From contig QPGO01000002.1 in assembly GCA_008632985.1 (NCBI GenBank), positions 186,001 to 250,000 of the forward strand: 64,000 bases of DNA. The letters are read 5' to 3'. The number at the start of each line of letters is the position of its first letter. Positions within the stretch are counted from its first letter, which is position 1. Shown in pieces: positions 1 to 50,432 of the stretch. The translations under genes and the position numbers were made by a program. A model generated the notes under the pieces. The model was given only the letters and a program-made list of their open reading frames with translations. It did no database searches and was not told the DNA's origin. This DNA is from Psammoneis japonica (Eukaryota).

Positions 1-3000
1 CAATGATTGAAATTTTTTGACACGCGTGCTGATTGCATCCACAGATCTTCAACACACACAATTGCCAATTTTGTTTCTCAGTGGTCATTGAGCCACAAAC
101 AAACAAATCTTTTTTGTTTGTTTTGAGCTACCTGCGTGGCTCATTCTGTCCACATTTCAAACACTTGTCAAGAACAGTTTCTTTTTTTTTTCTTCCACAT
201 GTCCGATCTCTGCCTTTGTTTTAAGTTGCATGTGTGGCTCACATGAGTGTTCTCTCTGTGTGCTGCAGTTTGCTGGTTCATTCTGTTGTGGCAAAGGGAA
301 GTGAGCTTGGCAACATGTTTCTGAAAGGCGCACTTGAGCAAGCTTTGCACAGTGCGTCAGTTGACAAGACTTTTGAGACACAGCACCTTGTGACTTTGCT
401 CTTTGAAAAAGCTGTTCTCATCATTGCAGCAATGGTTTCCAGTGCTTGGAGCCTGGCAGAGAGAACTGCCTGTGCACTTGCCAAGCCCTGGATCAAGGGT
501 GGCACCAACTGTGCTTGTTGACTCTTGCTGTTGCTCATGCTCTCAACGTCCTTCTGTGCAGCAGATGCTTCCTGGACCATTGCACAGAGTGCTCAGTCTG
601 CATCATTGACAAACTGCACTTCAATCTGTGCATGCAAAATGATGAAAGTGGGTGTCCAACAGAAGGGTTCTGGCCAGCTGTTGTCATCTGACTGTTGCTG
701 GCAGCATTTTCTGCAGTTTGGCTCCAATCTTGGAATCATTGGCCACTTGAAAATGCCTCTTTACAGACAACATCAACAAATTGAGTGGTGCTCCAAACTG
801 GCATGTTCACAGGATCCGATGTCCAACTGCCTGTGGCTCCTCAGGAACTTGCAAGAATTTTTGACACCTGCCAAAACTGCCCCAGGATGGTCCCCTCAAG
901 TCACAGAGGGTGGTGTTTGGGCCACTGGTTGAAACTTTTGGATGAAAGGACATTGAGCCAATTTGGTTGTTGCAGATGATCATGACAAGCAAGCATTGCC
1001 ACACTTGCTTTTGTTTGTGCATGGAAAACACTGCCAAAGAAGAAAGAGCTTGTGCCTTTCCTTTCATCTTCATCAAACATGTCATCCAAGGCATGGGCAC
1101 CCACACAATGCACTCCACTTTGGACCTGAAAAGCATTTGCTGAAGTGTTGAATGCAAAAGAAACAAAGAAATTGAGTGAAAAGCTTGGATGATGATCAAA
1201 GGCATTGAATGAAGATGGCTTTCTTTGGGACACACACCTTGTGATCACAATGGTGTTCCAACATGCTCTCCAGGCATTTCTTGCACTTGGTGTTGAATGT
1301 TGCCACCACAGCAACCAATCCCATGGTCAACTTGAGTTCTGTTGTGTGCCTGCATTGTGGAAAGAAAAAGAATTGATTTCATGGGTTGTGGGCATTTTTG
1401 TCAAAAATCACAGCAATGGCCATGCGGACGTGGCCCAAAAGCACCATGTTGGGTCACCTGCTGTGTGGCTCATTTTGTCTTCATTTTGAATTTGTGTCAA
1501 GAAAAGCTTCATTTGTTTTTTTGCCTCCATTTGTCAGATCTCTGCTTTTGTTTTTTAGCCACCTGTGTGGCTCATTTTGTTCTCATTTTAAACCTCTCAA
1601 GAACAGCTTTGCTCATTTGTCTCCTTTTCCTTCCATTTTGTCAGCTCTCTGTCTTTGTTTTGCTCTGTCTCTGCTGCACCTGTCCTTTTTTCCTGCTGGA
1701 CGCTGCACAACTCATCCTCCGATCTGACACCCACCAACAACAATGGCATGCCCCTGTCACAATCCACTTTGTTGTCCAGGTCAGACATGCAACAATGACA
1801 AGCAACAACAACAAACATGCTCTCCAAAGACACCCTCATCTCCAGTGCTCTTCTTTCTCCATTTTGGCCCACACCCTGACAATGACTTTGGGAGAAGCAC
1901 ACCCCCAGTGCTGCAGGAAGAGAAGAGCACTGGGAACAGCAAAAAGAGCAGCTTAGATTTCAACTTGCCAAGGCATGGTCTTTGCATCTCATGAAGTGAG
2001 CAATGGTGCCACTGCTTGGAAAGCCACTGCCAGATGACAGAGGCAACTGGAAAGATTGTCTCATCTTCTTCCCTGTTGCCATTGCCTCAAATGAAGACAA
2101 TGGCCAGAGTTTGTCAGCCACACATCCTCAGCTCCAAGGGGTTTGTTCTGGTGTTGAGTTTGATGACATGTGTTGGGGACTCCAATTGGAGCAACAGGCT
2201 TGCCGGGTGGATGGCGCATGATGCACAGGCCAAAAACACTTGAGAAGATAAAATGGAGCAAACGGTGGTGCCCCCATGTCCCAGCAAACATTTTCCAAAT
2301 GCCAAGCCAGATCATTGTCATCACCACAAATGCACATTGGCTTGAGTTGCTGCTGCCTGCATGATGCTCACCACCCCAAATGCATTCAGTCTGCATTTGT
2401 TGAGTGGGTTGGCCCAGCTGTGGTGACTTTGCACTTTTGATTTGGGAAGCTGCCAGCCTTGTCTTGGGCAGCAGAAGCCCCTTGCATGATTCCTCCGCAA
2501 ACAAGAAGATGCCCAGCTGCACAAGGTGTGGAAGCATGAGGCCCACAGATGCAGCAAAGGAGATGTGCAGTTGTCTCACGATGGCATTGGAGGACTCCAG
2601 TGGGTCACCAGGGACACTCCAGCAGCCTTGGTTGGGGAGCAAATGCCTTGTCTTGTGTCAATGCAGCACCTTGTCTCTGTGACATGACTGGCTTTGGCCC
2701 ACAGCCAGAGCCAGCCTGTGAGGGCTGGAAAACCATCTGTGCAACTGCACAAGTGCTCCGTTGTCTTGGGATGGCATTGGATGACTCCATTGGGTCTCAG
2801 AAGATGCAATGACAACAATGGTTGGGAAGCAAAGGCCTTGTCTTGTGTCAACACAGCACCCTGTCTCTTTGACATGACTGGGTTCTTTGGCCCAGCCACT
2901 CCACCTGCAAGGACAAAAAAAACATCTGCGCAACAGCGCAAGTGCTTGGTCATTTTGGGATGGCTTTGGTGACTCCATTGGGTCCCTGAGGAGCCAACAA

Positions 3001-6000
3001 CAACAATGGTTGGGAAGCAAAGGCCTTGTCTTGTGTCAATGCAGACCTTTGTCTCTCTGGCATGACTGGGTTTGGCTTTGGTGCCACCCCACCTTCAGAG
3101 ACAAGAAAAACATCTGTGTGCTCAGTTGTCTTGGGATGGCTTTTGGTGACTCCATTGGATCTTAGAGGATGCAACAACAACAATGGCTGGGAAGCAAAGG
3201 CCATGTCTTGTGTCAGTGCAGCACCTTGTCCCTCTGACATCATGGCTGGGTTTGTTGGCTCAGCCAAGAACCAACTTGCAAGAAAGACAAGGGAGCCATC
3301 TGTGTGACAGCACAAGCTCTCAGCTGTGTTGAGATGGGCACAAGAGACTCCATTGGGTTCCCTGAGGAGGCAAGAACAACAATGGTTGGGAAGGAAAAGC
3401 CTGATCTTGGGCCAATGCAGCCACTTTTGTTTCTGATGTGATTGGCTTGCTTTGGCCCAGCCACCCACCTGCAGAGACAAGGGAGCTTTCTACACCCATG
3501 TTGCAGCACAAGTGCCCAGTTGTCTTTGGATGGCATTGGGTGCCTCCATTGTGTCCCAGGGGAGCCAACAACATCCAGCGCAGGGAGTCAGTGAATGGAA
3601 ATTCATGGTGTGGTTCCCTGTCTCTTGTTTTTGTGAAAAACCAAGAGAGAACAGAAGAGAATGACCCGCCATCAAGTTGCCCACTTTCTTTTGTGGAGGT
3701 CACTTCTGTGACACACTGGAGTCATTGTGACTCCAAAATTGTCACTTCACTGGCATGAAGGGTCTCCTGTTTCTGAGCTTTCTGGAAGAGGCGATTGTCT
3801 TTTGTTGGCAGCAGCATCACACCAAATGGCAAAAAGGTGTTGATTGAATGAAGTCCAGGAGCTGGGAGTGTGCAGTTTGAGTGTGAAAATTTCAAGAACA
3901 ACAAGAGCGCATCAATGTGACAAAAACAAACTTGTTGATTGCACGTGTGTGACATTGATGAGTGAATGATTCATTTGGGTTGTTTCAAACCATTCAAACC
4001 ATCATCATGTTGCAATGAAATCTTTGATTTTTAGAACAAAGTTGTTGCTGAAGAAGAGATGCTGATGGGAATCAACTGATGGTCAGGCTCACATTTTGGC
4101 CAAAAACACGAACTGTGGCTCCCTCACAAGAGACACGAAAAAATGCAAACTCAATGTCTGACAATGAGAGCAGTGGGGACAGGCAACAGCTGCTGGCAGG
4201 CTGAGGAACAGGAGCAAAATGCATGGAGATGGGCAATGATGGCCGACAGGGGCACACAATGAGCTGCAAAGAGGCAAGGAAGGCAGGTGGCAGAGAGGAT
4301 GAGGGTCTTAAGAAACACAAGACATGCACAAAACCTGGTCATTGGCACAAAGTTTCTCTTGTTGCGGGTGATGGTTTGGCCTGCCAAACAAAGAAGTTCA
4401 AGACAGATGTCATTGTGGAACAATGTTGTTGCCTGGTGTGGACAATCACGGAGAGAGCAAGAGTGGCTGCAAGGGAGGACACAAGGACTGAAACATCACA
4501 CCCATCATGTGGGGACTGCAAAGTGCTGCAGGAGCTGGTGGAGTGCAGGAGATGAACAAAAACAGGAAAAAAGGAGCATTGTTTGGTGCGCAGTGCAGAA
4601 ATGACAAAACAGACAAGTCAGACAATGAGCAGCACACAGCCAACGTGCGGTTGGGTTGACAAGACAATTGAACATCATTGTCAGAAAGTTGTTGCAAACA
4701 CGCGGTTGTTGAGACAGAAACAAGTGCAAGTGATGAGGTGGCAGGGTGATGGATTGGCCGCAGATCTGCTCAGTGCCATTTGGGCCGCAAGCAGCCAAAT
4801 CTTCCAGCATTGGATGCAGTTGAAAATTCACAGCAATGTCTGTCAATCTGTGGCATCCAAAGATTTGACTCTTGCTGTGCATTTGGCAGCAGCAACGCAA
4901 AGTTTGTCGTTGTTGACAACATGCCGGTGTGGCAGCAATGCCAAGGTTCATGTTGGGATTGCAGCTGCACAAAGCATGCATGCTTTTTGTGCTTTAAAAT
5001 CTTGATTTTCCCACACCCACGTGTTCTGCACAATTGCCACATTCAAACAAAATTTTCAATTGCAAAGAACACCAAAACAAATGACAAAGCTCTTCCGTTC
5101 AAACAAGTGCAAACAAATGCGAGCTGTTTTGACTGTGGAAGTTTTGTCCAATTGCGTTGCAAGCCCCAGGACAGCTTGGGGACAACTGCAAAGAGATTTG
5201 TGCCTCGTGCAAACTGGGGCGACATGTCTGAACAGACCAGGGCACCAACAGGGTGCAAAAAAGTTGTGGACAGATGCGCGCATGCTGGGGATGTGTGTGG
5301 AAACCATGGAAGAGCAACTTTTGGCAACAATTTCTAAAATTTCCATCCCATTGAAAGTTTTGCATCGTGCATGGGTTTTGTCAGCAGGGGTGTGCACATC
5401 ATCAATTCATCCGTGTCTAAAGTGGCAAATGTCTGTGGGTCAACATGTGTTGAGCTGAGTCACTCTTCTAAAGTTGCTGACAAAGAGAAATGCCAACATT
5501 TTGTGCTGAAACCATGCAACAATTTTGCACCGAGAAATGTGTGATCAAATGCAAAAATGATGATCATGAAACTTGCAGCTGCACTTGAGTTGAATGGGAA
5601 AAATGCTGGGACAATTTTTTTTGTCCAGCTGGCATGGAAAAAGTCAAATGTGTGGAGCTTGACAACTGGTCAAGGTGTTTTCTGGTTCTCAGTGAGCTGG
5701 TGCTTTGATGAACTTCAGATTGACAGCAGCAGCAATGGAGGAGAGCAACAGATTGAAGATGTTGAGCACATGTGAGATGAATCATGGGTTGCAGTGGCCA
5801 CAAGGCATCTGACAAACTCTCCACATGTGCGCTCCAGTGCAAACTCACAACACCCTCCACGTGCGCAGTCCTGTGCAAACTCACAAAACCCTCCCCCATT
5901 GCAGCCGGCCAATTTTGCTTTTCAGATCAACTGGGGACCTGCCAACTGCAATGCCCCAAGAATGAGAAGACCCCTTGCAGACTGCAAATCCATGTGAAGT

Positions 6001-7810
6001 GTTGCCACAGAGTCCAGATGCAAGAGAGAGTGGGGATGGCCACTTGTCGTCACTTCCTTGCATTTCATTTTGGTGTGGCATTTTTCATTTCATTTTTTCT
6101 GGAGATTGAAAGACATGCTGAGAAATGCTGGATCTGAGTGAATGCAGCCCAGCTCAACAGCCACAGCACCCCCTTTTGTGCTTGGACCTTCCCACACCCA
6201 GTTGACATGGCAGGTCAAGCCTCATCTGACATGCCACAGTGAGCCAAAGAGGCCAAACTTGTGCATTCTTACAAGCAACACATTCCAGCCCTGGGCTGGA
6301 CTCGTGTGGCACTGGGCTCACAGAATTCCATGTGCAAGCACATCTTCAAAATCAAATGAACGACCAAGTTTGTGGTGCAATTTTGTGTCTCTTGATGCTT
6401 GCATTTTTGAAAATCTGGCTGCCTGCCATTCTCAAGACATTTGAGAATGGCGCAGAAGAAAAAATGTCAAAAGGTGTTGAATGGATCACCCAACAATTGC
6501 GCTACAAAATGACACAAAAATTCCACCAAGGCAGTGCGAGGTTCCACCCGGAGCCATTTGTTGAGAAAGACAAGCAACTGGGCAAGCCGCCATCACACAG
6601 CTGTCTTTCCAGCATGGCAAATGCTTGTTCAGCACAGCAGATGAGAGTGGTGTCCTCTGCAGAAAACCACCAATTTGAAGGATGTTCTTCTCTTCCAAGC
6701 ACTGTTGTGGATGCCACGGAAGGTGTGCAAAGCAATGCACACAATGGGAAAAGTGATGCACAGGAACCAGAAAAATTCAAGTCTGAAGCACAAAAAACAT
6801 GCCAGGATCTGCATCAGATCCAACACAGAAAAGGATTGAGCTCACACAAATTTTGTGCCTGTCCAACATGTGTCACTTTCATGTTGCATTTCACATGCAC
6901 AATTTGTCACAGCCTCAGCAGAAAACACTTGTCAATGGAAAAACTTGTGACCTGGAAAAGCCAGCATTGTTTGACACAGATTTGACAAAATTGCAGCAAT
7001 CTCCAGCTCAGTGACACCACGTGTTTGACACAAAGAAAGACACACCAGTTTTTGCTGAGACAGAGCAAGAACAACAACATCAATTTCTGCATGTGTGCGA
7101 GCATCAGCAGCGCTGTTGACACATTTGTCATTTCACTGAAGCAAACCTCCCAACAGGACAGGTTCTCTTTCAGGAATTGACCAACGCGCTCATTGAGTGC
7201 ACAGGTCTGACTGGTCTCCTTCTTTGAATGATGATGACACAGCTCGTCAAAAGAAGCCAGGGCTCTGTGGGTGTCAGGCATTGCTTTGCCAAAAGCAGCT
7301 GCATTGTGGGACAACTCTGGAAAAGCACATCCACATGTTCTTTCCCCAGGGTTTTGTTCATCATGTTTCAAAGCCAGAGGGGCAAGCTGAGAAGCACAAG
7401 CAGACGGGTCTTGCTCAGCTCACCATTTTGGGTCCATGTGCCCAATCTTCCAAGTGGAGACTGGCAGTGGGAATGAAGAAGGCTGCAAGCAAATTTGAAG
7501 TCCACCAGGGACTCATGTTTGCTTTGTGTGTTTCTTGATGTTTTTGACAGTGACACTCTTGTCAAAGATGAAAGATGTCGTTGTGAGCACGTTGATGAAA
7601 GTGGCTTCAAACTTGTGGGAGCATCAAGACACCTTGTCCATGGTGTGGTGGCAACAAAAGCACAGTGTGGCAGGAAATTTGTGGAGCCGGTTGTGCCAAG
7701 GAGATGCCTGGGCAAAGAGACCTCGGCTGGTGCGAGTGCTCAGCAAAGACATGATTTCGGGTCTTTCCCATGCCGACGCTGCCCCATGGCTGGAAGCCAC
7801 AGGAGCTCAA
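1..7810. mobile_element. Degenerate repeat/transposon-derived block, CpG- and TpA-depleted (family not identifiable)
   Basis: TG/CA-saturated sequence; overlapping short ORFs in all frames rich in C/H/Q and almost without Tyr; internal repeats (about 130-250 vs 1455-1620; 2560-3560). Confidence 0.6.
2560..3560. repeat. Diverged tandem repeat, unit about 175-200 bp, about 6 copies
   Basis: Recurring ATGGCATTGG..GACTCCATTGGGT..ACAATGGTTGGGAAGCAAAGGCCTTGTCTTGTGTCA near 2581, 2771, 2960, 3135, 3333, 3529. Confidence 0.85.
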
Positions 7811-7811
7811 C

Positions 7812-8209
7812 TGACGCGTTCCAGACGTAGGTGGGAATCCGTGTGACATTGGGCCCGTAGACTTCTACGTGCGAGCTCCGTAGTAAAATTATACGGTAAT
7901 TAAAATGTCAATGATCGCCAACAGAAAATGAGGCAATTTTGCGAACGCACAAACTCGCCCATGATTGAAGTACATCATTTTTTACTTAGCCAGTTACATT
8001 CTTCAGACATTGAAGAATGTAACTGGCCTGTTATTGTTTCTATAAATTTGTTATATAAAACGTCTGGGGCTTCGCAAGACAGCGAGTCTGGACAATTTTT
8101 TTTTAACATCACACGTAGAAATGTACGTGCAAAATATACGACGGATGATAAAAATGATTTGTGTCACACGTCAGTACTACGAGCTCCCACCTAGGGCTGG
8201 AACGCGTCA
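7812..8209. repeat. Inverted-repeat-bounded AT-rich island (MITE-like, or abutting ends of two elements)
   Basis: 7812-7836 TGACGCGTTCCAGACGTAGGTGGGA is the reverse complement of 8185-8209 at 23/25; further inner inverted motif pairs. Confidence 0.6.
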
Positions 8210-8699
8210 ACTCCACAACACCAAACCAGAGCACCACAAAGCATTGCCTGTCATGGTCCAAATTCTCAGGAACAGGAGGCATCTTTTCCACAAGTAAAAA
8301 TTGGCATCACGAATGAATTGTCATTGTTGTCAACGAATGTCATTTGCAGCATGTTCGAAGCCAAGAAGGCGCGATGTGAGTGGCTTTTTTTTAAATTGCC
8401 TCGGAAGGCAAAAAGCGATGCACAATGGGAGGCATCTTTTCCACATCGTTCAGTCTTGGCACCAGAACCCGGGACTGAATCCCTGGTTTTTGAAATGTGG
8501 GTTTGAACCCCAAAATGAAAACACGGGATTGAAACCCGGGTTTTCATTCACACAGCTTGCAGTGCTTTTTCTGCGTAATTTTGCCATTTCTTAGAACCCA
8601 ACGTGACTTGGCTTCCCAGTTCTTGTGGAAAACAGATCACTTGATCCACTGCATGGCTGCTGCTGCTTGCAATGTTGAACAAAGAATTTGACATTTTAT

Positions 8700-10500
8700 G
8701 TGGTGTTGCTGTCCTGCTGTTCAATGAGACTTTTGATGTGATTTTTGCATTCTGTCTCTTCACCAGATTGATGGTGGTGTCCAATCAGTCTTGCGTTTGT
8801 TTGAAAACAGCTGAGTGTCTTCCCTGCCAAGCCCATGCAACAGTGCATCATGACAGTCAAGGAAACAGGTCTTCTTGCCGTTTGCGCCTGGTTGGCAGGG
8901 AAGTGCAATGGTTTCCCACAGGTTGCAACTCGAGTGCGAGTCCACCCCGCACCAAACACAGACCCTTGGATGCTTGTGGCTGGTGGACACCACATCAAAG
9001 TGACAACGCAAGTGTGCAGACGAGATTCATTTCCACCCTGCTGAGCATGTTGGCATTGTTCCAATGTCACAAAATTGCGAGTCATTGTCGTTTGTTCCGA
9101 AGCCGCTCTTCGTTGATGGTTTTGTTGTGCTGCAACCCGCATCACAGAGTCACCATGGCACAAACGTGCTTCAGGTGATGCTGCAGCATCTGTCTTGAGA
9201 GTTGTTCTCGGAACTCCCAGTGACCCGTTGGACTGTTGTCTTTCCAAGACAAGTCCAACCCGCCCTCCGCCACTTCCAAATGCATGTCATGCGCAATGAC
9301 GACAGCCATGGCCTTGCCGTGGTTCATGCAGAATGCCAATGCTTCCAAGAGCAATGGAACATCTTTGCATTTTTGATGTGATGATCCATTGAATCAATTC
9401 GTGAGCAAGTTGAAAGATGCAGATCACGGGCTTCATGTCATCTCGATTGCCCAGTGTCGCTTGCTCTCATTTCTGCCTCTTTCCTGACGCCTCGCACATT
9501 TGTTGCACTCATTGGGGGCATTCACAGCAGCAATGTTGCACGACGAGGTTGACTAAAATGAGCAAAGCACATGCTGGCATCCCTCAGTGCTGCATGTGGG
9601 TGCCACAGTCTTGACAGCAACACCGGATGATCAAACCTTGCTGCTTTCGATCTTGCATTGGATGGCGTTTGTTTTTTCTGAAAGTGCTTCCCTGGCACAC
9701 CTGAAGGCAGCCGATCCCTTCAACGTGCAAATGTGGCCAAGTGGCCATTTCTCCAATCCAGTCTGAACTGCAGTCATCATCAAAGCAGTTGTCACATGTT
9801 GTGTGTGGCTTTCCTTGGAATGTCTTCTTGGGTCCGGCGTCGTCACCCATTCTGCCAAAATCCGCCATTTGCCTGCTTGTTCCAAGATCATGCAGATTTC
9901 CATCGGGCCCATGGCACCCCATCCATCTGTCCTTGGGTGCAATTTGTGTCGGCGAACATGAGCCCGAGGTCGGATCCGGTGTGCATCTGACGCGATCGCT
10001 GTCTGACCGCCCTTGGTGATGCCGGGCTTTCCAACTGTGCGACCGTCAATCCCGCTGCCAGCTTCCCACAACCCGCATGGCCCCAGGTGGTTTTGTCACC
10101 ACATTGATCCAATTCTGCATGGTGTGTCATCGCATTGACATTGTGAGCTGTTGTTGCGTGTGTCATGTCACACTTGCAGGCCGGGTTGCACCCAGCTTCT
10201 CCTCTTCTGGGGGATGTCATGTTGTTGCACAGCTTCAGCACTCGCTTTGTTTGAAGCCAAAGTGAATGATTGATTGACGAGGATGTGTCTGAGTCGCAGT
10301 GGATCCACCAGCCATCCACCTGCGGTGAATGGCTCCGTCGCTGCCACCCTTGACGCCGTCTTGGACAGTTGCTCCATCAAATCTGAAAAGCTCTGGATGC
10401 TCACAAGTTTGAACTGGTGTCCATGCAAAGAGCACAGCTTCAACTCTCCCGCGGCGTGCAAGTTTGAATCTGTTTCTACTTCGCTGTAGAACGACTTTCT
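8700..10500 (-). mobile_element. Degenerate piggyBac-like DDE transposase
   Basis: Frameshifted minus-strand fragments ELDQCGDKTTWGH, KPGITKGGQ..SDAHRIRPRAHVRRHKLH, KPHTTCDNCF, NHGKAMAVVIAHDMHLEVAEG, WEFREQLSRQML and a Cys-rich C-terminus resemble piggyBac-type transposases (recognised from memory, no search run). Confidence 0.7.
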
Positions 10501-10791
10501 GGGGTCTGAGTTGACACCCGACCGTGTGGTTCACACATTGGCAGAATCAATTGACAGAAAAACAAAGCATCCCGATTTTTCATCCGTTGTTTGAAGGGTA
10601 AACAGTCATTGACATCCCGACTAAAACCTCTGAGNTAATCATCAATGATTATTGGATCTTTCCGTTGAACGGCTGACGGCTACGGTGGTGGAAAAGCCTN
10701 GGACTGAATCCAGGGTTTTTCGGGCGCCCAGACATGAAACTTGGTAACGAATGATGTAAGTAAAATTGCGTGATGGAATGGCACTTTCAAA

Positions 10792-12499: not shown

Positions 12500-13675
12500 T
12501 GAATACTCTCAAAGCAACCCACCACTGATTGATCTTTCTTCCTTCTTTCTGATGATCACAGTGACGAACACTCTTGGAACCCGCCAAGTCTACCAAGTTC
12601 AGAGTAGAGATACGAATCGCACCGTTATCTTTGCCTTCGTGGTTCTCCTTATCACTCGATGCATCCTCATAAATCTTGATCTGTCTTCCACTGACTCTCG
12701 ACGGTGATACGGAAAATGGTATGAGATTGGGAAGACTGTTCATTCATGCTGGTAGATGCTACCGCCCGGTACTTCTCTCCAGTAAATAGCACCTCCATGA
12801 TGCGATCAAAATCGGTAACATTCTCCTCGTGGCTTTTCACAAAACCTCCACGTCGAGTGTCTTCTAGTACTTGAAGCTCATCGTTTCTCCGAGCAACTCC
12901 CACACTTCCTCGTTGAAGACCTCAAAGAAGGACGTTCGAACCAAGAACGCCCGGTCTGGTGTCTCGGCAATGTGATTAATTGCATCCTTGGTAGTCATAT
13001 GTACAACGCCTCCACCGGTAGATTGTAGCCTTCTTAAATAGACCCGGAACCCTGCGTCGTGTAGGTCTTACCACTAGAGATTTGTCCGTATACAAAGATG
13101 GTTGCATTGATTTCCCAAACGACTCCTTGAGCGATGTTCTTGCCTGTACTGTACCACCATCAACTTGCGGTGTAGTAGTTTCTTCTCCAAAGGTTCTGTC
13201 AAAGCTGAAAAAGGCTCGGCCAATAATTGGTTTGATCAATCGACTATCGACTTGTACTGCGGAACTTTCCGTAGGTGGCTAGCTGTATTCGACGTGATTC
13301 CTTGGAGCTCAATGGGTGTATACGAATGGCAACTAAACAAAAATAGAGAAATATACGTGGCGTCATACAGTGAGAAGTGAGACGCGTCAAACAAAGCACA
13401 CCGTTTGAACACCATGTTGTAGTTGCTGACATAGCCGCAGCAGCGTCCGTAGACGATTCTTTTGCTGAAGTAGTCGTAGCAGTAGCACCGCCCACGGAGG
13501 CTTCCGTCTGCCCCGGTGTGCCGGCAGTGAATCTTAAGTGTTTTCCGCATTCCGTTCCTCCAATCGCGCTTGCTATCGTTTTTCGACGTTCTTCCTCCTT
13601 TTTAATCACTCGAGCTTTGGCATTCCTAAATGAAGGAGGTGACACAATATGATCCATACCAACCCATTCGTTCAT
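12500..13675 (-). pseudogene. Kinesin motor domain (kinesin-7/CENP-E-like) pseudogene
   Basis: Motifs spread over several frames: FSFDRTF, YGQISSGKTYT (P-loop), RTSFFEVFNEEV, TSMNEQSSQSHTIFRI (altered switch I), LNLVDLAGSKS (altered switch II); many frameshifts, truncated. Confidence 0.85.
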
Positions 13676-24890: not shown

Positions 24891-25676
24891 TCAACAAGCG
24901 GCTTCCTGTTCCGTAGTCGCGTGTGTATCTTCAAGAACTCCAACAAAGTGCGTAACGATACCATGGTCATTAATAAGCGGAGCAACGCGAATGTAATTCT
25001 CAAAGAACTCGCCGTCTCGGTTACGATTCGTAAGATAGGTCGCAACGGGTTGATTGGACCGCAGCTTTTGTTCCATGCTCTCGAGCGACGGCCCTTGTGT
25101 AAAGGAGCCTTGAATACCAAGAGACGAAAAGGTCTCTCCTCGAGCTTCTTGCTGAGAATATCCGCATAAGTCTTCCCAGCAGTGATTGACCCTCACGATC
25201 GTGAATGGATAATCGGCTTGGGTCACAACCACAGCATTCGAAAAGCCCCATTCATGCTCATCCTTCATGGCTTCCATGGCTTCCTCTACTGATCTGGGAA
25301 AGGACGAAAAGTCGCCGATATCGGAAGTGAATTTGTCGTGGAAACGAGCACGAATACGAATGCGGGCGCCTTCAAGTAAAGAATTATCAGGCTCCCTTTT
25401 CATGGTGTAGCCAGCCATTGCAATGTTGCTACCCGCACTAGCCATGGATGCGACAGAATACTTCTTGACCACTGAATCGTGAAGTCGGCGTCGTGCGGCA
25501 TCTAAGTTTGTCTTGGCTGGGATGAATGATGCGGCAATAGAATGCTTTTCGTGTTTGGGTTGCTCCATGACGCTCACAGTAGGAAACTTGGCTTTGAATC
25601 CTGCTCGCAGACGAAGACGAGCGGCTTCCAGAGCCGCCGACTGCTTCATAAGTCGAGATGTCATGCAAGTCATCAT
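24891..25676 (-). CDS. PAS (LOV-like) domain protein
   Basis: C-terminal AVVVT..PFTIVRVN..WEDLCGYS..E..G..LTNRNRDGEFFENYIRVAPL..VTHFVGVL; lacks the NCRFLQ cysteine. Confidence 0.85.
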   Translation of the reverse strand: MMTCMTSRLMKQSAALEAARLRLRAGFKAKFPTVSVMEQPKHEKHSIAASFIPAKTNLDAARRRLHDSVVKKYSVASMASAGSNIAMAGYTMKREPDNSLLEGARIRIRARFHDKFTSDIGDFSSFPRSVEEAMEAMKDEHEWGFSNAVVVTQADYPFTIVRVNHCWEDLCGYSQQEARGETFSSLGIQGSFTQGPSLESMEQKLRSNQPVATYLTNRNRDGEFFENYIRVAPLINDHGIVTHFVGVLEDTHATTEQEAAC

Positions 25677-25971
25677 TGTCTTTTCCGCTGTGTTGCCACG
25701 AATTATGAGAAGAATAGTGTCAGTCGGTTCGAATAGCGGAGAGGAAGGATGGTGTCAAAAAGTGACGCCTGGTGTCATTGCGGTTTTCGTTTTTGATATT
25801 TTTAGTCGTGGATGAAATGCCACCAAAGTCGACAGACAAACAAACACCGAAACTTGCCGCCGACGAAGAAAAAGTACGTCACCGCAAACAACCAACAACA
25901 TGCCATGAAGCGAACGGCAAAACAATCAGGTGTTGTTTAGTTCAACTCGCACTGCACAGTAGAAAAGTGTC

Positions 25972-27737
25972 ATGCCGTCCAAGCCGAAAAAGATCATCAA
26001 CGATCCAGCCGATTCTGTCGATGAATTTATTGCTGGTCTACTTTTGCAATATCCGACTCGCCTCGTGAAATTGAAAAATCATCATGTTGTGCTCAAGAGC
26101 AACTTGAAGGCTGGAACGGGCGTTCAGATTCTCAGTGGCGGCGGTAGCGGACATGAACCGAGTCATGCAGGATGGATAGGTGACGGTATGCTCAGTGGAG
26201 CCATTCTAGGAGGAATCTTTGCGTCTCCCTCTGTCGCCGCCGTCTTGGCTGCAATTCGTGCCGCTTCGTGTGGGAAAACAAATCCCGTTCTGCTAGTGGT
26301 GAAGAATTACACGGGCGACCGTTTGAACTTTGGAATGGCATGTGAGCGAGCCAATTCGGAAGGCATTTCCTGCCAAATGGTGGTCGTAGCCGACGATACG
26401 GCCTTGGAGAGAACCAAGGGTATCACTGGAGCTCGAGGCGTTGCCGGAACCGTTCTTGTTCACAAGATTGCAGGAGCGGCGGCTGCCGAAGGGAAATCTT
26501 TACAGGACGTGGCAAACTTGGCTACGTTGACTGCAAAGCATATGGAACGTTGGGTGTGGCACTTGATGCAGTCACGGTGCCTGGTGCAGCGGCGGTCAAC
26601 GATCGTCTGGACGATGATAACACGATTGAAATTGGTCTCGGAATTCATGGCGAAGCTGGAATGAAGCAGTCCGCGCTTTTGACGAGCAACGAACTTGCAA
26701 AGGAAATGATTGATACGATTCACAAGTATGGACGTGTCGATGAATCGGAAGCAGTCGTTCCCATGTTTGAAAAAGGAGACGATCTCTGTGTCCTCGTCAA
26801 CAATTTGGGTGGGACGTCTAATTTCGAAATTTCAATCTTGACCAACTCCGTTTTGGACTATCTGGAAACGCAACATGGTTGCACAGTGACTCGTATTTTT
26901 GTAGGTAGCTACATGACTTCATTTGATATGCATGGTGCGTCCGTCACAGTCTTGAATCTGTCCTCATCAAACGTCACGGAGCTACTTGATGCCGATACCA
27001 CAGCTTTGGCGTGGTCGCCGTGTGATGTCTGGAACAAAAATAGCGCTCGTCCGTCCTTGACGGAGCTTCCCGAAGTTTCGATTGATGTCACAGTAGAAAC
27101 CAGTGAGTTGCCGCCCATTGAGATTGACAATTTTGAAGCAACCGCCTCTGCAATGGTTACAGCCGCGGCTAAGGCACTAGTGGAGTCGGAGCCGCTCTTG
27201 ACCAAATACGATACTATTGTCGGCGACGGTGACTGCGGCATTACAATGAAACGAGGTGCTATGCAGCTCTTGGAAGGATTAGAAGCCAACACTCTGAATA
27301 CTACGCATCCAGTTCTACTATTTAGTTCCATGGGGGACGCTGTCTCCGCCAGCATGGGAGGGACATCAGGTGTATTGTTGGAACTTATGCTGCGAAAGAT
27401 CAGCTCAACCCTTGCCAGATCTGTCAAGATTGATTTGGATACCATGTGTCAAGCGTTTTATGAAGGTGTTCAAGTGGTATCGCTTTACGGAGGGGCGACT
27501 ATTGGTTCTCGTACAATGCTTGATTCCATGATGCCCGCCGCTGACGCCTTGGTGGAGACCAAGTCCCTGGTCTCCGCAGCAACCAAAGCACGACAAGGCG
27601 CTGATGGAACTGCCAAAATGGGTGTTGCGAATGCCGGGCGGTCAAATTATCTTTCGGAAGAAACCCTTGCAGGCACGCCTGATCCGGGAGCTGTAGCCGC
27701 GGCTGTCGTGCTGGAAGCCTTGAGCAAAGCATTGTAA
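25972..27737 (+). CDS. DAK: Dihydroxyacetone kinase / triokinase (Dak1+Dak2)
   Basis: SGGGSGHEP, VKNYTGDRLNFG, GLGIHGEAG, GDGDCG, MGGTSG, GRSNY, PDPGA; one frameshift near 26548 (probably a missing G). Confidence 0.95.
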
Positions 27738-27879
27738 GAAATTTGCCTTAAAAGTTGACGTTACTAATCATTACAAGCTACACTCCGTCTCTTGTCGTTA
27801 CTTTGTCGCCACCGCTTTCTACACATCCTTGTAATTGCACTTCTTCCTCATCCGAAACCCCTTTTTCTATGCTTTCCAC

Positions 27880-30130
27880 GCGTGCCCAGCCGTGTTTCTG
27901 TCTTGAAACCAGGCTTCAAGAGTTCACGCTGCAGTTTGCACTGTGTGGTCCATCCATTGGCTCCAATGGATGAAGTGGGCAGCACAGCTTCAACCCAATG
28001 CCAGGGTCTTGATGGGTTGTGTTTGAAGTTGACCTGAGAATGATCCACACAACACTGGTGGAAATGAGGGCAAGCGCATGACAAGACATGTCAGTTTGGT
28101 CTTCTGTGCAGATTGTGACCCAAAGCACTGTTTGAACAACATGATGTGTGGCACCCAACGAAGGGGTCATGGCTGGTCATGTGTGAAGCTGGTCACCCAC
28201 ATTTGACATGAGAGCATTGACAGACATCAAGCTGGGGAGTGGTGGAAATGAGTGCAGGTGCAACAGATTTGTCAATGCAGCCTCGCACTCACATCAAAAA
28301 TGTTTTGTCATGAGAAAATTTTGTGTGTGTGGCTGGGGCCAATTGGAGAAATTGGGCACTTGCACAACATGAGAATGATGCACACAAGAAACTTGGGTTT
28401 GGCAAAAATCAGAGCATCAGAGTCTCAGAGAAGTGAGGGGTGTGATGCCATCAAGGAAATCTTGTGTGGCAGCTTGAGTGTGTGCTTCCAGACGGTTGAG
28501 CAGCAACAGCTGTCAGCAGCAAATGCAAACAAAATGTTTGAAGTGGACCCTCTGGATGTGTGCACAGGTTGGTTGGTTTGCAGACAAAATGCTTTGATTG
28601 CTGCAATGGTTGCTCTGGTTGCTCCTGCTGCTGACTGGCTTTTTTGCTTGTTTGAGCCCTTTGGCTTGGGTGAGCGAGTGCCCCCCCTTTGCACAAAGCT
28701 CTGCTCCTGTCCTCTGCTTCTTCCTTGCTCCCATGGAGGTTTTTTCATGTGCTCTCTCTTTCCCTTCCTGGTTCTGCACTTGACCACTTTGCCCTCTCAT
28801 TTCCCCAGGCATTTTTGACCTGCTCTCTTGCATCTTTTTGTCTTGGTTGGCCACTTGGCCAGCTCTCATCATGGGATTTCTTCCAACGACCCCAGCTGGA
28901 GTTCTCCAGTGCTCAACAGACTGAAGGCTCTTTGTTGTTTGCAACAGTGAGCTTGCTTGTGCCAACCCTGTCATCCAACCACTTCTGCTGGGCACAAGCA
29001 GAAAAGAGGCAACATGTCCTCAGGTGTCATCTGCGCGCAGCAAACATGTGCAGGGCGGGAAGGTGGTTGGCAGATGGCTGCAGCATGTGCGTGCAGCCAG
29101 CACACCATCATTCTCTTGTCAACTCATCTGTCCATGGAGCTCAGCAGGTTTGCTCACATTGCACCCTGTTCATTGTCACATGGCCAAAAATGTGCGCTCA
29201 AGTGGCGCAGCCTTGCTGTGCTGCTTGCTTGGTTGAAGAATGGCTGTCCGCAGCAAGTGCAAAGACAAAAAATGTCATTTGAGGTGGACCTTCCAAATGT
29301 GCGGGCAGACCCATTGACTTGCAAACAAAACACTTCAACTGCTGTGGTGGTCACCCTGGTTGCTCCTGCTGCTGCCTTCAGCTGGTGACTTGGAGCCCCT
29401 TGGGTGAGAGAGAGAGAGAGAGAGAGAGACAAGAGAGAGAGAGAGAAAGCCTGCACCCACCCCCACAACATGCTGCCATGCTTTGGCTGCAACAGCAACA
29501 AGCTGCAGTCATCAGACACATGACGTGTCTTGCCTTTTCAAATGATTCAGAAAAAACAGGTGGCGAGCAACAAAGCAGTCCAAAACAATGCAGGGATCAA
29601 CACACACAACACCTTCTTGTTGCTCTGTTGCCTGGTCAAGGTCTTGTGTCTCCTCCTGATTGCTTGGCTTGCTGGCGTGTCATTTTTTGGGATGCTTCTT
29701 TGCATCTCTGTCCATCCCTTCCTTGCTCCCATGTTTGTTTCTCCATGTGCTCTCTCTCTCTCTCTCTGCCTTCCCAGCTCTGTGCTTGAACACTTTGTCT
29801 TTGCTGTTTTCCCCAAGGCGCTCTTGACCTGCTCACATCACTGGCTTGCCCCTGGCTTGGCCAACTCTCTCACTGCAAAGTTTGTTTTCTTCCCAGCGAC
29901 CCCAGTTCTTGTTCTCCAGCACCAACAGACAACAGACCAAAGGCCCATTGTCTCGCTTGCAGCGCGCGCGCAAGACATCCTTCTCTCGTCTATCCGTCTG
30001 TCCACGGGGTTCGGGTTCGCTCACATCACACCGTTCATCGCACCGAACGTGCGTTCGAGTGTCGAGGGCATGCACTCGCATTGCACACAAAAATACAAAA
30101 CGCTTGACACGTTGACAAGACCGGAGAAGC
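27880..30130. mobile_element. TpA/CpG-depleted repeat-derived insert with an internal duplication
   Basis: TG/CA-rich; 28530-28900 resembles 29270-29400 plus 29640-29920; (GA)n at about 29405-29446. Confidence 0.55.
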
Positions 30131-31049: not shown

Positions 31050-31710
31050 AAGTATTTATCATAATGGTAACATGGCATATCATAGTAGTCGGCTTTGCTA
31101 CTCTGCACCGTTAGTCAAAAAAGCCTATAACTACGAATTGTCCGCGTCGGCGAGGAACCGGGCGGTGGTTTGCTGGCTCGAAACAGCCACACGACGTAGC
31201 CTGATGCAATGGGGGAAAGGAAGAATCAAACAGTCATATCTATCCGTGACTTTCTTACCAGAGTCTTTAAGATAATGGTTTGGTTCGTACCAGTTGATGG
31301 ATCATTCATGACCACAGCGCGACACTAGACAAAACAGTTTGAAAATAATTTTATAGTGTGAGGGCGGAAAATCAATGCTGGATGGTTGAGAGTGATAAAA
31401 AGCAACCCAATTCTCTTGCTTGGGGTGCAGCATGTCAGCAAATACTTGAAGGTATGCCCGCCTCTGCCCAACCCAAATCAAACAAGCCTGAAACCCAGAG
31501 AAAACTGCATCAGAACAAGCAAGCTGGTTTTGGCAAATGCTGTGCGGTCACATTGAAAGCATGAAAAGGCCACCCAATTCACTCATCTGGGTGGCACATC
31601 AACTGCTCAAGCTGTGCCACCTCCATTAAACCCAAATGCAATGAGGGCACTCACATCACTGAAAGAAACTTGCCAAATGCCCAAATGGTGGTCGCACACA
31701 AATGTTCAAT
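31050..31710. repeat. Diverged direct duplicate of 39060-39705
   Basis: Shared blocks GCCTGATGCAATGGGG, GATGGATCATTCATGACCA, AACCCAATTCTCTT, GTCACATTGAAA, CAAATGTTC. Confidence 0.85.
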
Positions 31711-34180
31711 GAGCACAGTCCACAAGGGAGGGGGGCGGCAGAATGTTTTGTGGCTCTGTCTCAGGGAGCCAACCCTTGCTTGCCTTGCAAAGCTTCCAGT
31801 GACATTCACCATTCAATCATGTCAGAAAGAGTGCAGAATTTGATGGCTGCACCCCTGAGGAAGGCCACACAATATTCAAAAAAGCACTCTGACAAGACAG
31901 GCGAAGCACTCCATGATGCTCTTGCAGAGGACATCTGCACCATGAAGGGTGCAACCGCCAAGGACAAAGTGGCAGCACCAATGCCAGCAAAGTCAGCTTT
32001 TCATGAAAAAATGCATGGCAATGGACATGCATGATGGGCACAACTGACAGTTCTTGAAGAGCACAACAAAAACTTGGCTCAAAAGGAGCCAGGCCAGTGC
32101 AAGAGCCTGCAATGTCGGAAATGTCGCAAATTGTCATGGAAGTGTGCACTCACTGCCAAAGAACATTGTGGACATTGCAAGCAACTCCAGAGTCCATGAG
32201 GGGCATTGGATCTGCTCATGAGCTGCTCAACATGCAGAGGACAGTGGCACACCTGACACTCTTTTGGGGAATTTGGTGCTTGCAACATGTCAAGCATCTG
32301 GGTTCTGTTGCATTTAATGGTTGCTGGCTTGTCTCTGTTTCATGCCTGTGTTGAGCAGGTTGCACGAACAACAAGGGCGGTCATGAGAATGGACCCAGCA
32401 AGTCACGCCTGGTGCGCACACATTGTTGTCGGAGAGCAACCAAGTTTGGTGACCTCATGTGTCTTGGTGGCAGGGGGGCAATGTCAAAATGGGCTCTTGT
32501 CAGCTTGCAAAGTCAATTGCTTGCAAAAGGAGGGCACTGAAGATTCATTGCATGGCAATGCAAAATTGCATTTGAGAGATGACACATGGTTCTCATGACA
32601 AAATCCACTGACTGGCAAGCAACCTCCAATGTTGAGAGCAGATGACACTCTTCCAGATCTGTTGAATGATTGTGCATCCACAACAGACTTGAAAAGGCTG
32701 TCAACCAAGGAGGCAAAGGCTCATGACATCAGTCTTTTGCATGACAAAGCAAAGCACAAGAGCCCATCTGCTGAAAGAGAGAGACAATCCATGGCGTGCA
32801 ACAATGACAGTGTGGCAAATTGTGTGCAAGCAACACAAGTGGCTCTAGAGCCAACACCCTCATCATCAACCATTGGCCCAGTCAGAATGGCATCTGACAT
32901 TTGACACACACCAAGAGCACAGCATCTCCCAAAGAGCACAGGGCAGATGTCATTGCCATCAAAGCAATTTTTTCCCATTCTTTGGTTTCAACCCTTTCAA
33001 ATTGCTTCATCCAAAGGGTGGCGCCAACAGAGTCGAGGGGAAAAAGATGCCAATTGGACCTGCATCATGTCTTGATCATTTTGAGAACAGCAGTCACCCC
33101 GGTGCTCTTGTCCATTCTTGTGAACAGCCCAAGGAGGAGGAGATGGCAAAAAACGGATTTGGAAAAAGTCAATTGCGCCAAATGCACAAATTGCCAAATG
33201 ATGGGAATCGAACCAGCACGGAGCACCTGGAGCTGGAACAGGCCTGCAATGGACAGCCCAAGGAGGTGATGTCATGGCAGCTGGAGTCCATGCAAGCAAA
33301 ACAGCCTGACAATTGTGGCCAAGGGAGCATGAGGGCAGAAAACTCAGATGAGGTCCCACAAAGAAATGGACGTTGCCCATTGTCAGAAGCAGGGGATTCA
33401 TGTGCAATTGTCAAAAAAACAAAATGACCACATGAGCAATCTGCAACCACCAGCGATGCCCAGCCAAAAAGAAAGCCAGGATGCATTGTTGTCACAAACA
33501 GCACTGCAACAACAACACAAATTGCAATGGCTTGTGTGAAGCATGTGGTGCATCTGATGCACTCTGGTGCAGGACAGTCTGCCTGCATTTTGTGGATCAC
33601 TTGCCAGTGCTTCCTGGCAATCCAAGTGCCAACCATTTAAAAACTCATGTGGAAAAAAGCAGTGGGTTCATTGGGAGACTGCTGATCATCTTGGGTTTTG
33701 AATGGTCAGGTGCTGGACTGATCACCTTGCACAACCTTGACTGCGTTGCAATCAGCACAAAATGGAGCACATGAAGCCAGCAACTCTTGATGTGATGGCA
33801 CCAACATCTGATGGAACGACAGCAATGGAAAAGGTGGCAGTTGACCCCTTGTTGGCTCCTGCAACTCTTGGTGCTTTGAGTTTCAATGCACTGACAAAGG
33901 GCACTCACATGTCCAGCAGAAATGGTGCAGAGCGCGAAAAGCTTTGTTGATGCTGCAATCCCAGATTTCTCTTGTAAAGGAGCAGCTTCTGGAATCATGC
34001 AACTGGCTAAAAAGTTCAAAGCTCAGTGTGTGGGGATGAGACGAGCGCATCCAAGCCACCCAAAATCGATTTGCTCAATTTGAGCCCAATTGAAGTCAAA
34101 TGATGGACTGGATTTGGAAGACTTAAAGTGCCTGTTGTGCTGCAGCATCATTTGTTGTGAGGGCAACTTTGACGAGATGG
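31380..34180. mobile_element. TpA/CpG-depleted degenerate block
   Basis: Same composition as 1-7810; Tyr-poor spurious ORFs. Confidence 0.5.
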
Positions 34181-37580: not shown

Positions 37581-37712
37581 CTTTGTTCTTGTTAAAAATC
37601 TAAAATTTTTTGGTGTGCGCATGAATCAGAATCTGATCGTCCTTTCACAGTTGCCGCACCTCTTGCCACAAAAACACAAACTTGCAACCTTCAAGCAGTC
37701 TCCGTCGCAAGC

Positions 37713-38661
37713 ATGAAAATCGCCGCCATACTTGTTCTCATTGCCTCCCTCGCTGTGGCGTCTGCGTCGAAACTTCGTTTCGGAAAGCCTGGTGGTGACG
37801 TGACCGACGAAGCCGAGAACCATGTGAGTCTTTTTGGCACCGTGCGCGACGAGGTCGAGAGGAAGTCATTTGCTGGTTTTTTGGCAGTGCTCTCAATTTC
37901 ATTTCGTCCCACTTTTCTTGTGTTCCCGCCAGGCATCTCATCATCGTGTTTTGCAAGCACACGGTGGCAGCAGTAGAAGCAAGGGCAAGGGCGGAAGCAG
38001 CATGATGGGCTATGGCGGCAGCACCAAGGGCAGCATGGGTGGCTATTACTACGGCAGCAAGGGCATGGGCTATGGCGGCAGCACCAAGGGCAGCATGGGT
38101 GGCTATTACTACGGCAGCAAGGGCATGGGCTATGGCGGCAGCACCAAGGGCAGCATGGGTGGCTATTACTACGGCAGCAAGGGCATGGGCTATGGCGGCT
38201 ATTACTACGGCAGCAAGGGCATGGGCTATGGCGGCAGCACCAAGGGCAGCATGGGTGGCTATTACTACGGCAGCAAGGGCATGGGCTATGGCGGCTATTA
38301 CTACGGCAGCAAGGGCATGGGCTATGGCGGCAGCACCAAGGGCAGCATGGGTGGCTATTACTACGGCAGCAAGGGCATGGGCTATGGCGGCTATTACTAC
38401 GGCAGCAAGGGCATGGGCTATGGCGGCAGCACCAAGGGCAGCATGGGTGGCTATTACTACGGCAGCAAGGGCATGGGCTATGGCGGCAGCAAGGGCATGG
38501 GCTATGGCGGCAGCACCAAGGGCAGCATGGGTGGCTATTACTACGGCTCCTACAAGGGCAAGGGCAGCAAGGGTGGCTATTACCACAGCTACTCCAAGTC
38601 CACCAAGGTAAATCGTGAACTAGATGCCGATAACTCTGTCGAGGAAGACCACGAGTGGTAG
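37713..38661 (+). CDS. Secreted Gly/Tyr/Ser/Lys/Met-repeat protein, cingulin/silaffin-like biosilica protein (279 aa spliced)
   Basis: Signal peptide MKIAAILVLIASLAVASA; phase-0 intron 37824-37932 (GTGAGT..CAG); RVL and REL (RXL) sites flank GYGGSTKGSMGGYYYGSKGM repeats; acidic tail. Confidence 0.85.
38005..38548 (+). repeat. Coding tandem repeat, 60-bp and 36-bp units
   Basis: Near-perfect GGCTATGGCGGCAGCACCAAGGGCAGCATGGGTGGCTATTACTACGGCAGCAAGGGCATG units. Confidence 0.95.
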
Positions 38662-39059
38662 TTGCTCCTCTTTTCAAGAGCGTCACACGCTCAACTGCGG
38701 CATTTGGTAGTGCTGAGGGTCGAGGGATGGTTTATATGTTTTTTAAATAGCAACCACTGGTTTGGCGATGGGAGGCTTGCCATAGAGGAATATCATGTTT
38801 GTATAATAATTGCATTTGCATCTTCCAGTTCTACTGTAGCTTATTGCTTTGCCTCTGCAAGTTTCCATGCTCGACATTGTCTACGAGGTAGCCATAACCA
38901 ACACAGAGACGTACGATGTGAATAAACGAAAGTATTTTTGCATGAAAGGCATGCATTTGCTTTGATGACACATTGTGTTTCTTGATGCGATCAAGCAGTG
39001 TTTGGTGCATAGAGTTTCACCAACACCCGATGCCTCGTGTCGTTTCAAAAGGGTAGTTG

Positions 39060-47400: not shown

Positions 47401-47410
47401 CTCTCCAGAT

Positions 47411-50088: not shown

Positions 50089-50432
50089 ATTCACCGACCG
50101 CTGTGGGCCATCGTCGACAGCGATGAAATCACTGTTGTACCGGCTACTCTCTAGCAGTAGAGTATTTGGAACATAAAAGAAGCTGACGTCGATTGGACCT
50201 TCTGGGTCTCGTAACATCTTACGTACATGTACAGTACTGTATCCTACTGTACTGTACCGTACTGTACAAGACGCCTCATCGCCGACTCGTTGGACCGATT
50301 CGATTCGATTCGTTTGATTTGACATTCGACTGCGCCGCAACTGCTGCTGAATACTGAATACAGTAGCTAGAGTCTAGCCCTACTCCTCAATGCTGTAGAG
50401 TGCGATCTAATAAAAGTTAATATAGCTCTCCT

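Follow-up and report, generated by a model that had tools for sequence, protein, structure and literature searches.

Near-complete loss of TpA dinucleotides, with most CpG retained, in a decayed piggyBac-like transposase gene

The window analysed here is a stretch of 64,000 nucleotides from contig QPGO01000002.1, and its subject is a transposase pseudogene, which lies on the minus strand inside a block that has lost nearly all of its TA (TpA) dinucleotides. A scan of the whole window in 500-bp steps for observed/expected (o/e) dinucleotide ratios distinguished two states: gene stretches with values of about 0.6 for TA and about 1.0 for CG, and repeat-like blocks with about 0.03 for TA and 1.7-1.9 for TG and CA. 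A sequence-only reading of positions 8700-10500 had described a piggyBac-like transposase whose Tyr codons had turned into Cys and His codons in a sequence with many CGs and almost no TA. The composition is as described, with 70 CG and 3 TA in the 1801 bases. The features discussed below are listed in Table 1.

Table 1. Features of the window (positions are those of the whole stretch; o/e, observed/expected ratio; X1, a public sequencing run; MITE, miniature inverted-repeat transposable element)
Feature	Position	Strand	Remarks
TA-purged, CpG-retaining block	8207-10620	no strand	TA 9 (o/e 0.06), CG 88 (o/e 0.59), TG 266, CA 241
Transposase pseudogene, probable distant piggyBac-superfamily family	8751-10592	-	Profile positions 229-842 of 853; N-terminal 228 positions absent
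Two of the three TAs remaining in the coding part, 10 bases apart	10477-10488	-	Kept Tyr codon (TAC) and kept Val codon GTA
GCNPACKCDM	10164-10193	-	Three Tyr columns read TGC, TGC, TGT
Stretch immediately downstream of the GDKTTWGH motif	10050-10079	-	Asp of the motif is the counterpart of the Asp in the relatives' GDETT
PRAHVRRH	9946-9969	-	Tyr column (11 of 13 relatives) reads CAT
DNCF	9782-9793	-	Second acidic residue of the WDNYF motif; Tyr/Phe column reads TGC
TAG stop at a Gln column (Gln in 11 of 13 relatives)	9553-9555	-	Variant letters in X1 are CAA
AHDMHLE	9274-9294	-	Two Tyr columns (Tyr in 9 and 10 of 13 relatives) read CAT, each after G
MITE-like insert, 394 bp	7813-8206	no strand	29 TA (o/e 0.88); TCAAC(T) duplicated at both ends
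TA-free stretch	7430-7806	no strand	0 TA, CG o/e 0.34; an X1 contig joins it directly to 8207-8662
TA- and CG-depleted blocks	1-7400, 27869-29990, 31454-34007, 45945-48000, 54602-61547		TA o/e 0.008-0.044, CG o/e 0.13-0.24
Tandem units, each about 470 bp long, with about 80% likeness	47409-48775		44 adjacent double differences, 25 of them CA/TG swaps

The reading frame of the pseudogene, followed from 10592 to 8751, contains at least 11 frame changes and four in-frame stops (at 9722, 9555, 9435 and 8762). Its family became visible through its relatives. A phmmer search with the translation of 9631-10095 (minus strand) returned 178 proteins at E<=1e-3 (best E 1.9e-16); 13 full-length relatives were combined into a profile of 853 positions, which was compared by hmmsearch with the six frames of the window. 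The full-length relatives have the motifs GYNPAYKYD, RPRAYVHRHK, WDNYFSGD, and VVAYDMYLE, and the family has a Cys-rich part at its C-terminus. Five of the 13 match PF13843 (DDE_Tnp_1_7) at E<=0.01 and eight miss it; in a wider set the matches are five of 20, three of which pass the curated cut-off of 22.4 bits (34.6, 38.2, and 38.8 bits). The sole PDB match of the profile is the piggyBac transposase 6x67 (E 0.0059). In this alignment the Asp of the relatives' GDETT motif falls on piggyBac D268, and the window keeps this Asp as GDKTT. The Asp of WDNYF and a later v-D-x-i-D motif are present in the window as well, with no significant alignment to the second and third Asp of piggyBac. A 162-aa open reading frame (ORF) of the window gave no match to the PDB by phmmer. 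Because the window's own ORFs match no Pfam family, the link runs through the relatives. On these comparisons the gene is probably a distant piggyBac-superfamily transposase, identified indirectly.

With piggyBac the family shares the match of some members to PF13843 and the aligned GDETT Asp; the difference lies in its great distance and, for this copy, in the ends. piggyBac elements characteristically duplicate a TTAA target and end in short terminal inverted repeats. Neither a flanking inverted-repeat pair nor a TTAA duplication was found for 8207-10620, which is weak evidence, because this copy lacks its 5' end and any TTAA would have disappeared with the other TAs. Self-comparison revealed no second copy of the element in the window, and at 80% likeness X1 places 2267 contig pieces on the stretch, so the family is multicopy. 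What is left here is a dead copy of a multicopy DNA transposon, truncated on its 5' side and broken by frameshifts. An extra base occurs in some X1 contigs at 8889, 9327, 9621, 9747, 9870, 10300, 10392, and 10530 (among the indels listed); seven of these eight sites are within 13 bases of a frame change in the path through the pseudogene, and the eighth is 29 bases off. A 25-nt inverted pair (80% complementary) lies within 8466-8548, just 3' of the transposase, and a motif resembling it, about 22 nt long (GGACTGAATCC..GGTTTTT), repeats in direct orientation at 10701-10722, in a TA-normal stretch before a gap of Ns; these motifs may be ends of the element or another small repeat. A diatom transposase "weakly related to piggyBac" is mentioned in the text of Maumus et al. 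2009 (PMC2806351).

In the 2414 bases of the block, TG and CA reach o/e values of 1.66 and 1.72, compared with 1.0-1.3 in control stretches, where TA is at 0.60-0.64. The coding part (8751-10592) is more extreme: three TAs (o/e 0.028) are opposed to 74 CGs (o/e 0.61). By composition count, the GC content of the purged block is 0.50-0.51, the comparison value being 0.47-0.48. The borders are sharp. TA-free runs, the longest of which spans 2123 bases, terminate within about 100 bases; normal TA density resumes at 10622, and both the transposase homology and the TA-poor state stop near 10600. If an ancestral CAG is assumed, the TA of the TAG stop at 9553-9555 is best read from the letters as the later product of a C-to-T change, with no removal since.

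The consequences are most clearly seen in the codons. In 18 columns of the profile at least seven of the 13 relatives have Tyr; the window has His in 11, Cys in six, and Tyr in one of these columns. Hence 17 of the 18 are now CAY or TGY (Y, pyrimidine; R, purine), and His and Cys are the only residues that can be reached from TAY via a single transition inside the TA. Majority columns of other residues were kept in 185 of 249 cases (74%); at this rate, the binomial probability of keeping at most one Tyr in 18 is 1.3e-9. The other codon changes were scored as the sequence-only reading had suggested: five of the 13 Ile-majority columns are now Thr, all encoded by ACA, and two are Met, both ATG; among the 10 Val-majority columns, four are Val and three are Ala (GCA, GCT, and GCG). 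The claim that Tyr was lost to Cys and His through TA loss is supported; the word "recoded" is not, as the change is pseudogene decay and not recoding. All four peptides that had been quoted in its favour are found on the minus strand, including both His codons of AHDMHLE in the stated G|CAT context. The Tyr residues expected in the homologues are in the majority in GYNPAYKYD (12, 9, and 7 of the 13 relatives), PRAY, and AYDMYLE; the DNYF column gives less support, with six Tyr, four Phe, two His, and one Leu.

CpG sites can be followed in the same way. The 26 Arg-majority columns contain CGN in 12 cases, AGR in eight, products of a CpG transition in four (CAA, CAG, TGA, and TGC), and other codons in two. 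Accordingly, 12 of 16 inferred CGN sites survived, compared with one of 18 Tyr sites for TA. This difference, like the o/e values of the coding part, supports the view that TA loss is uncoupled from CpG decay. CpG loss is slower.

Intact homologues with Cys or His at the Tyr positions had been named as evidence that would overturn the reading, and this objection is not borne out. Among the 65 database relatives that cover at least four Tyr columns, 57 keep Tyr. The remaining eight (P0011, P0063, P0087, P0098, P0100, P0130, P0146, and P0150) have His or Cys at half or more of these columns; to judge from their sequences, these public gene predictions seem to be copies in a like state of decay that were annotated as genes. 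Their identity, both among themselves and with the window, is only 36-56%, which is why decayed copies of several subfamilies would be present as genes in protein databases. At 80 metagenome loci with intact relatives, the o/e value ranges from 0.44 to 0.79 for TA (median 0.62) and from 0.35 to 1.08 for CG (median 0.76). Note that these loci are the best 80 of 169 confirmed relatives, a choice that favours intact genes; no decayed copy is among them.

A further statement of the sequence-only reading was that the products at TAY depend on the preceding base. We examined this rule with purine and pyrimidine classes only, because the TGCA palindrome inflates the gain of TGC and tetranucleotide gains are too noisy in blocks of 2 kb. 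The counts were pooled over eight depleted blocks, seven from the window and one from a metagenome contig (L049, described below). The 62 TAs remaining in these blocks comprise three RTAY, 24 YTAY/RTAR, and 35 YTAR sites, for which shares of 0.26, 0.54, and 0.20 were expected (p 1.4e-12). The product ratio (YTGY+RCAR)/(YCAY+RTGR) is 1.60 in depleted blocks versus 1.12 in the window background and 1.08 at intact loci (p 1.6e-11 and 6e-25), and is raised in all eight blocks. Sites without TAY on either strand persist longest. From the residual TAs and the products it follows that the preferred target is the A of 5'-TAY-3'. For the block's own Tyr codons, the threshold was Tyr in five or more of the 13 relatives, which gave 24 columns, and the sole kept Tyr was left out; after a pyrimidine, Cys was found seven times and His twice, after a purine Cys five times and His nine times. 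Thus, the window-wide counts bear out the TAY rule, and the Tyr codons of the block exhibit a trend in the same direction.

The run X1, which contains 36% of the sampled words of the stretch, allows a comparison of copies. Its contigs show the same TA-poor sequence. Transitions make up most of the differences, with 82 A>G, 92 T>C, 74 C>T, and 76 G>A, and each type of transversion occurs six to 12 times. Several differences are paired TG/CA swaps. An example is the Tyr column at 9959-9960 (Tyr in 11 of 13 relatives), where the CAT (His) of the window is replaced by TGT (Cys) in five contigs, which account for a depth of 463.9 out of 543.4. As other copies have CA where the window has TG, each copy decayed separately. 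The CA/TG swaps between the tandem units at 47409-48775 indicate likewise that decay took place in situ, after duplication. Moreover, the ratios of His to Cys at the Tyr columns (11 : 6) and of TG to CA in the block (266 : 241) indicate that both strands were hit.

Adjacent to the block, positions 7430-7806 may belong either to the 3' flank of the element or to an older neighbouring repeat. The MITE-like insert that follows has 25-nt terminal inverted repeats (92% complementary) and normal TA and CG, and two X1 contigs link 7806 to 8207 without it; it is a later insertion into the purged repeat. Its summed depth reaches about 3e5, compared with about 41 for a contig of the locus. Three readings would account for this: the insert arrived after the purge, elements as short as this one are spared, or a high copy number does not by itself set off the process.

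The five blocks depleted of both TA and CG show no mutual homology. They contain 75 ORFs of at least 110 aa, none of which matches a transposon family of Pfam; two have host-type matches. Long spurious ORFs arise on both strands of these blocks because TAA and TAG are gone and TGA is the only remaining stop. CpG decay is strong in these five blocks and slight in 8207-10620, where four of the 16 inferred CGN Arg sites were affected. This difference between TA-only and TA- and CG-depleted blocks may be one of age or of methylation state; we infer that time, and not a difference in methylation, would explain the CpG loss of the other blocks. No block of the window is CG-poor with normal TA; the only 500-bp segment with low CG in which TA is present is the TA-rich one at 38001-38500. 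It lies within 37691-38731, where the two strands carry overlapping long ORFs and one 500-bp segment has o/e values of 2.0 for TA and 0.44 for CG; this skew is opposite to that of the purged blocks, and no Pfam family was found there. A second stretch that is poor in TA (o/e 0.095) and keeps CG (0.54) is located at 48000-50128. It overlaps a pair of leucine-rich repeat (LRR) ORFs, 48749-49498 and 49499-50128 (minus strand), which are separated by a stop, an LRR pseudogene; a word-based protein search with an LRR ORF returned generic LRR proteins only. This stretch may be a multicopy host-type gene that was struck by the same process.

Outside the window, the TA-only state was found on the metagenome contig L049 from a microbial mat. 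This contig carries an intact member of the transposase family (TA o/e 0.59), and the adjoining positions 4409-6450 contain four TAs in 2042 bases (o/e 0.033), with CG at 0.72 and TG/CA at 1.42-1.47. The switch to the TA-poor state is sharp, at 4408. Neither a Pfam family nor a match to the transposase profile was found in the purged part. The TA-only state of the block thus recurs in an environmental organism.

We conclude that the transposon copy probably carries the footprint of a TpA-specific hypermutation, for which enzymatic deamination of adenine in DNA would be the likeliest chemistry. After the copy had arisen, a process acting at the level of DNA converted almost every TpA to TpG or CpA, by an A-to-G change on one strand or the other, and the C-to-T decay of CpG was far slower. 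Given a preference for the A of 5'-TAY-3', RTAY sites would vanish first, YTAY would become YTGY, and YTAR would last longest. In coding sequence, TAY codons of Tyr would turn into Cys or His codons and ATA codons of Ile into ACA (Thr) or ATG (Met), and the stops TAA and TAG would be lost. A dedicated host enzyme, presumably an adenine deaminase acting as a defence, may be responsible.

Several observations weigh against this interpretation. The context effect at the block's own Tyr codons is not significant (Fisher p 0.089). The ancestral codons were deduced from proteins that are only 35-60% identical, and the assignment of the family has to rely on relatives, as none of the window's own ORFs matches Pfam (zero of eight at E<=0.1; zero of five at E<=10). 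X1 may lack independence from the organism of the assembly. The very abundant insert has normal TA, so repetition alone is no trigger, or the process has stopped at this locus. Deamination of A and modification of T would yield the same product, and the enzyme is putative. Finally, the gene structure of the host argues against the alga in which such a process was first described (see below), and the transfer of its mechanism to the window is therefore an analogy.

The identity of the products leads directly to the strongest alternative, a chemistry centred on thymine. If the T of 5'-RTA-3' were oxidised or hypermodified in silenced DNA, for example to 5-hydroxymethyl- or formyl-uracil or to a base-J-like derivative, it would mispair with G and cause T-to-C changes. 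A 5'-TAY site reads 5'-RTA on the opposite strand, so all our counts of codons and contexts fit this chemistry equally well, and the sequence does not distinguish it from adenine deamination. Modified thymines that favour TpA exist in some protists. The authors of the preprint discussed below favour a deaminase similar to ADAT2, a proposal made without an assay (bioRxiv 10.64898/2026.01.13.699255). Altogether, we regard thymine modification as rather unlikely.

Still less probable is a passive bias of repair or replication, which would slowly convert TpA to TpG or CpA in silent chromatin without any dedicated enzyme. It would agree with the old, non-coding appearance of every TA-depleted block in the window (no transposon family among 75 ORFs) and with the one TA that has since arisen anew (9554). 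CpG is usually the dinucleotide that decays fastest; here about 97% of TA was lost while about 75-80% of CpG was kept. The sharp edges of the block, and in Bigelowiella natans a rate of about 1000 times the background that is seen in some lines only, also speak against a passive process.

Editing of RNA by an ADAR-like enzyme (A-to-I), followed by copying back into DNA, is very improbable. ADAR typically prefers a 5' U, as the Discussion of the preprint points out (bioRxiv 10.64898/2026.01.13.699255), but a DNA transposon is involved here, the changes fall on both strands in about equal measure, and the decay of the tandem units took place in situ. An artefact of sequencing or assembly, or a natively low TA content under selection in a working gene, is hardly credible, although the assembly does contain single Ns, a gap of 266 Ns, and frameshifted host genes. 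The contigs of the separate run X1 share the TA-poor sequence with TG/CA swaps between copies, the gene has its many frame changes and stops and no longer shows a number of conserved residues (Tyr, Ile, and residues of the motifs), and all 80 loci with intact relatives have TA values of 0.44-0.79.

The closest known system is the alga B. natans, as described in a preprint (bioRxiv 10.64898/2026.01.13.699255). According to this source, two integrated viral regions mutate at about 1000 times the genome rate in mutation-accumulation lines, 230 of 231 new mutations in them being A-to-G or T-to-C and all of them on TpA; the hypermutation occurs in some lines only. The source also reports 124 TpA-poor, CpA+TpG-rich clusters in 95 Mb, an enrichment of DDE endonuclease and reverse transcriptase domains among low-TpA genes, and the proposal of an ADAT2-like deaminase. 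The terms "CpG", "trinucleotide", "pyrimidine", and "downstream" do not occur in its main text. The likeness to the window consists in the conversion of TpA to TpG and CpA on both strands, in the foreign or mobile nature of the targets, and in the composition of the clusters: with TA at 0.06 and TG and CA at 1.66-1.72, the block passes the thresholds given there (Rho TpA <=0.43, Rho CpA+TpG >=1.52). The window differs in the extent of the purge, which is close to saturation (about 97% lost) in contrast to a Rho TpA of 0.45 in a B. natans viral region, and in that its target is a piggyBac-like transposon in a genome that looks intron-poor, with neighbouring blocks that are depleted of CpG as well. 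The kind of process is thus already known, and the block is a new, near-saturated instance of it. Confinement to mobile DNA is evident insofar as the block is a transposon copy and the host-gene stretches have TA values of 0.60-0.64; one TA-poor stretch overlaps the LRR pseudogene.

Other mutational systems were compared with the TpA footprint. Fungal repeat-induced point mutation (RIP) works as a C-to-T process, mainly at CpA, which makes TpA and AT-rich DNA. It resembles the state of the window in that mobile DNA is permanently inactivated by transitions at a fixed dinucleotide, on both strands, with sharp borders and with copies hit independently. RIP was rejected as a cause, as the direction is opposite: A-to-G changes at TpA destroy TpA (o/e 0.03-0.06) and raise the GC content to 0.50-0.51. 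In addition, a dependence on duplication is not seen at the window, where the very abundant MITE-like insert is untouched. The decay of CpG by deamination of methylcytosine gives the same products TG and CA, but leaves the changes of Tyr, Ile, and Val and the loss of TA unexplained, and lags far behind TA loss here. In TadA and ADAT2, the natural target A34 follows the invariant U33 and, for bacterial TadA, has C as its 3' neighbour; YAC was the context favoured by early adenine base editors. These contexts fit the preference for T-A-pyrimidine. The difference is that these enzymes act on RNA loops, their action on genomic DNA having only been proposed (bioRxiv 10.64898/2026.01.13.699255).

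The host genes of the window were inspected for introns. Unbroken ORFs of 1047, 735, 471, and 463 aa are present. The Dak1 domain is colinear across a frameshift without an intron (profile position 169 ends at 26544, position 168 resumes at 26538), and positions 62-262 of the kinesin motor profile are contained in 12653-13159 with gaps of at most 26 bases. The Dak (26538-26544), HOP/STI1 (53291-53462), and kinesin motor (12653-13159) genes shift frame without room for an ordinary intron; these shifts are either single-base assembly errors or real frameshifts. Diatoms are intron-poor. The long intron-free coding stretches indicate an intron-poor genome and thus argue against B. natans, the genes of which have on average eight introns of 182 bp each, as stated in the text of PMC13746701. 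Judged by its gene structure, the host is probably not the species of the first description. A PAS/LOV-like ORF (24891-25754) was checked as a possible aureochrome, which would mark a stramenopile; it does not have the flavin-binding Cys motif and was uninformative. A literature search for the same signature in diatoms returned no report, and the B. natans preprint was all that was found.

A more far-reaching proposal is possible and we put it forward tentatively, as it is less likely to be right than to be wrong: TpA-directed A-to-G hypermutation might be a widespread genome defence of marine protists, and the window might come from a diatom or another intron-poor protist and not from Bigelowiella. 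The 5'-TAY target would then mirror the U33-A34 site of the tRNA deaminases, and the process would act fast on new mobile DNA, followed by the slower decay of CpG. If this were true, old elements would converge on TG/CA-rich sequences without TAA and TAG stops.

A single preprint of 2026, which deals with one alga, is the only known account of targeted genomic A-to-G hypermutation at TpA. To this, the locus adds evidence at the level of codons for a TpA footprint in a transposon in which the process is near completion, and it measures, at comparable codons, how far TA loss has outrun the decay of CpG. The added preference for a pyrimidine on the 3' side narrows the search for the enzyme. In practical terms, purged blocks conceal transposons from Pfam and yield long spurious ORFs. 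If the host is not Bigelowiella, the TpA process is no oddity of one species, and the TA-only purge on the microbial-mat contig points the same way.

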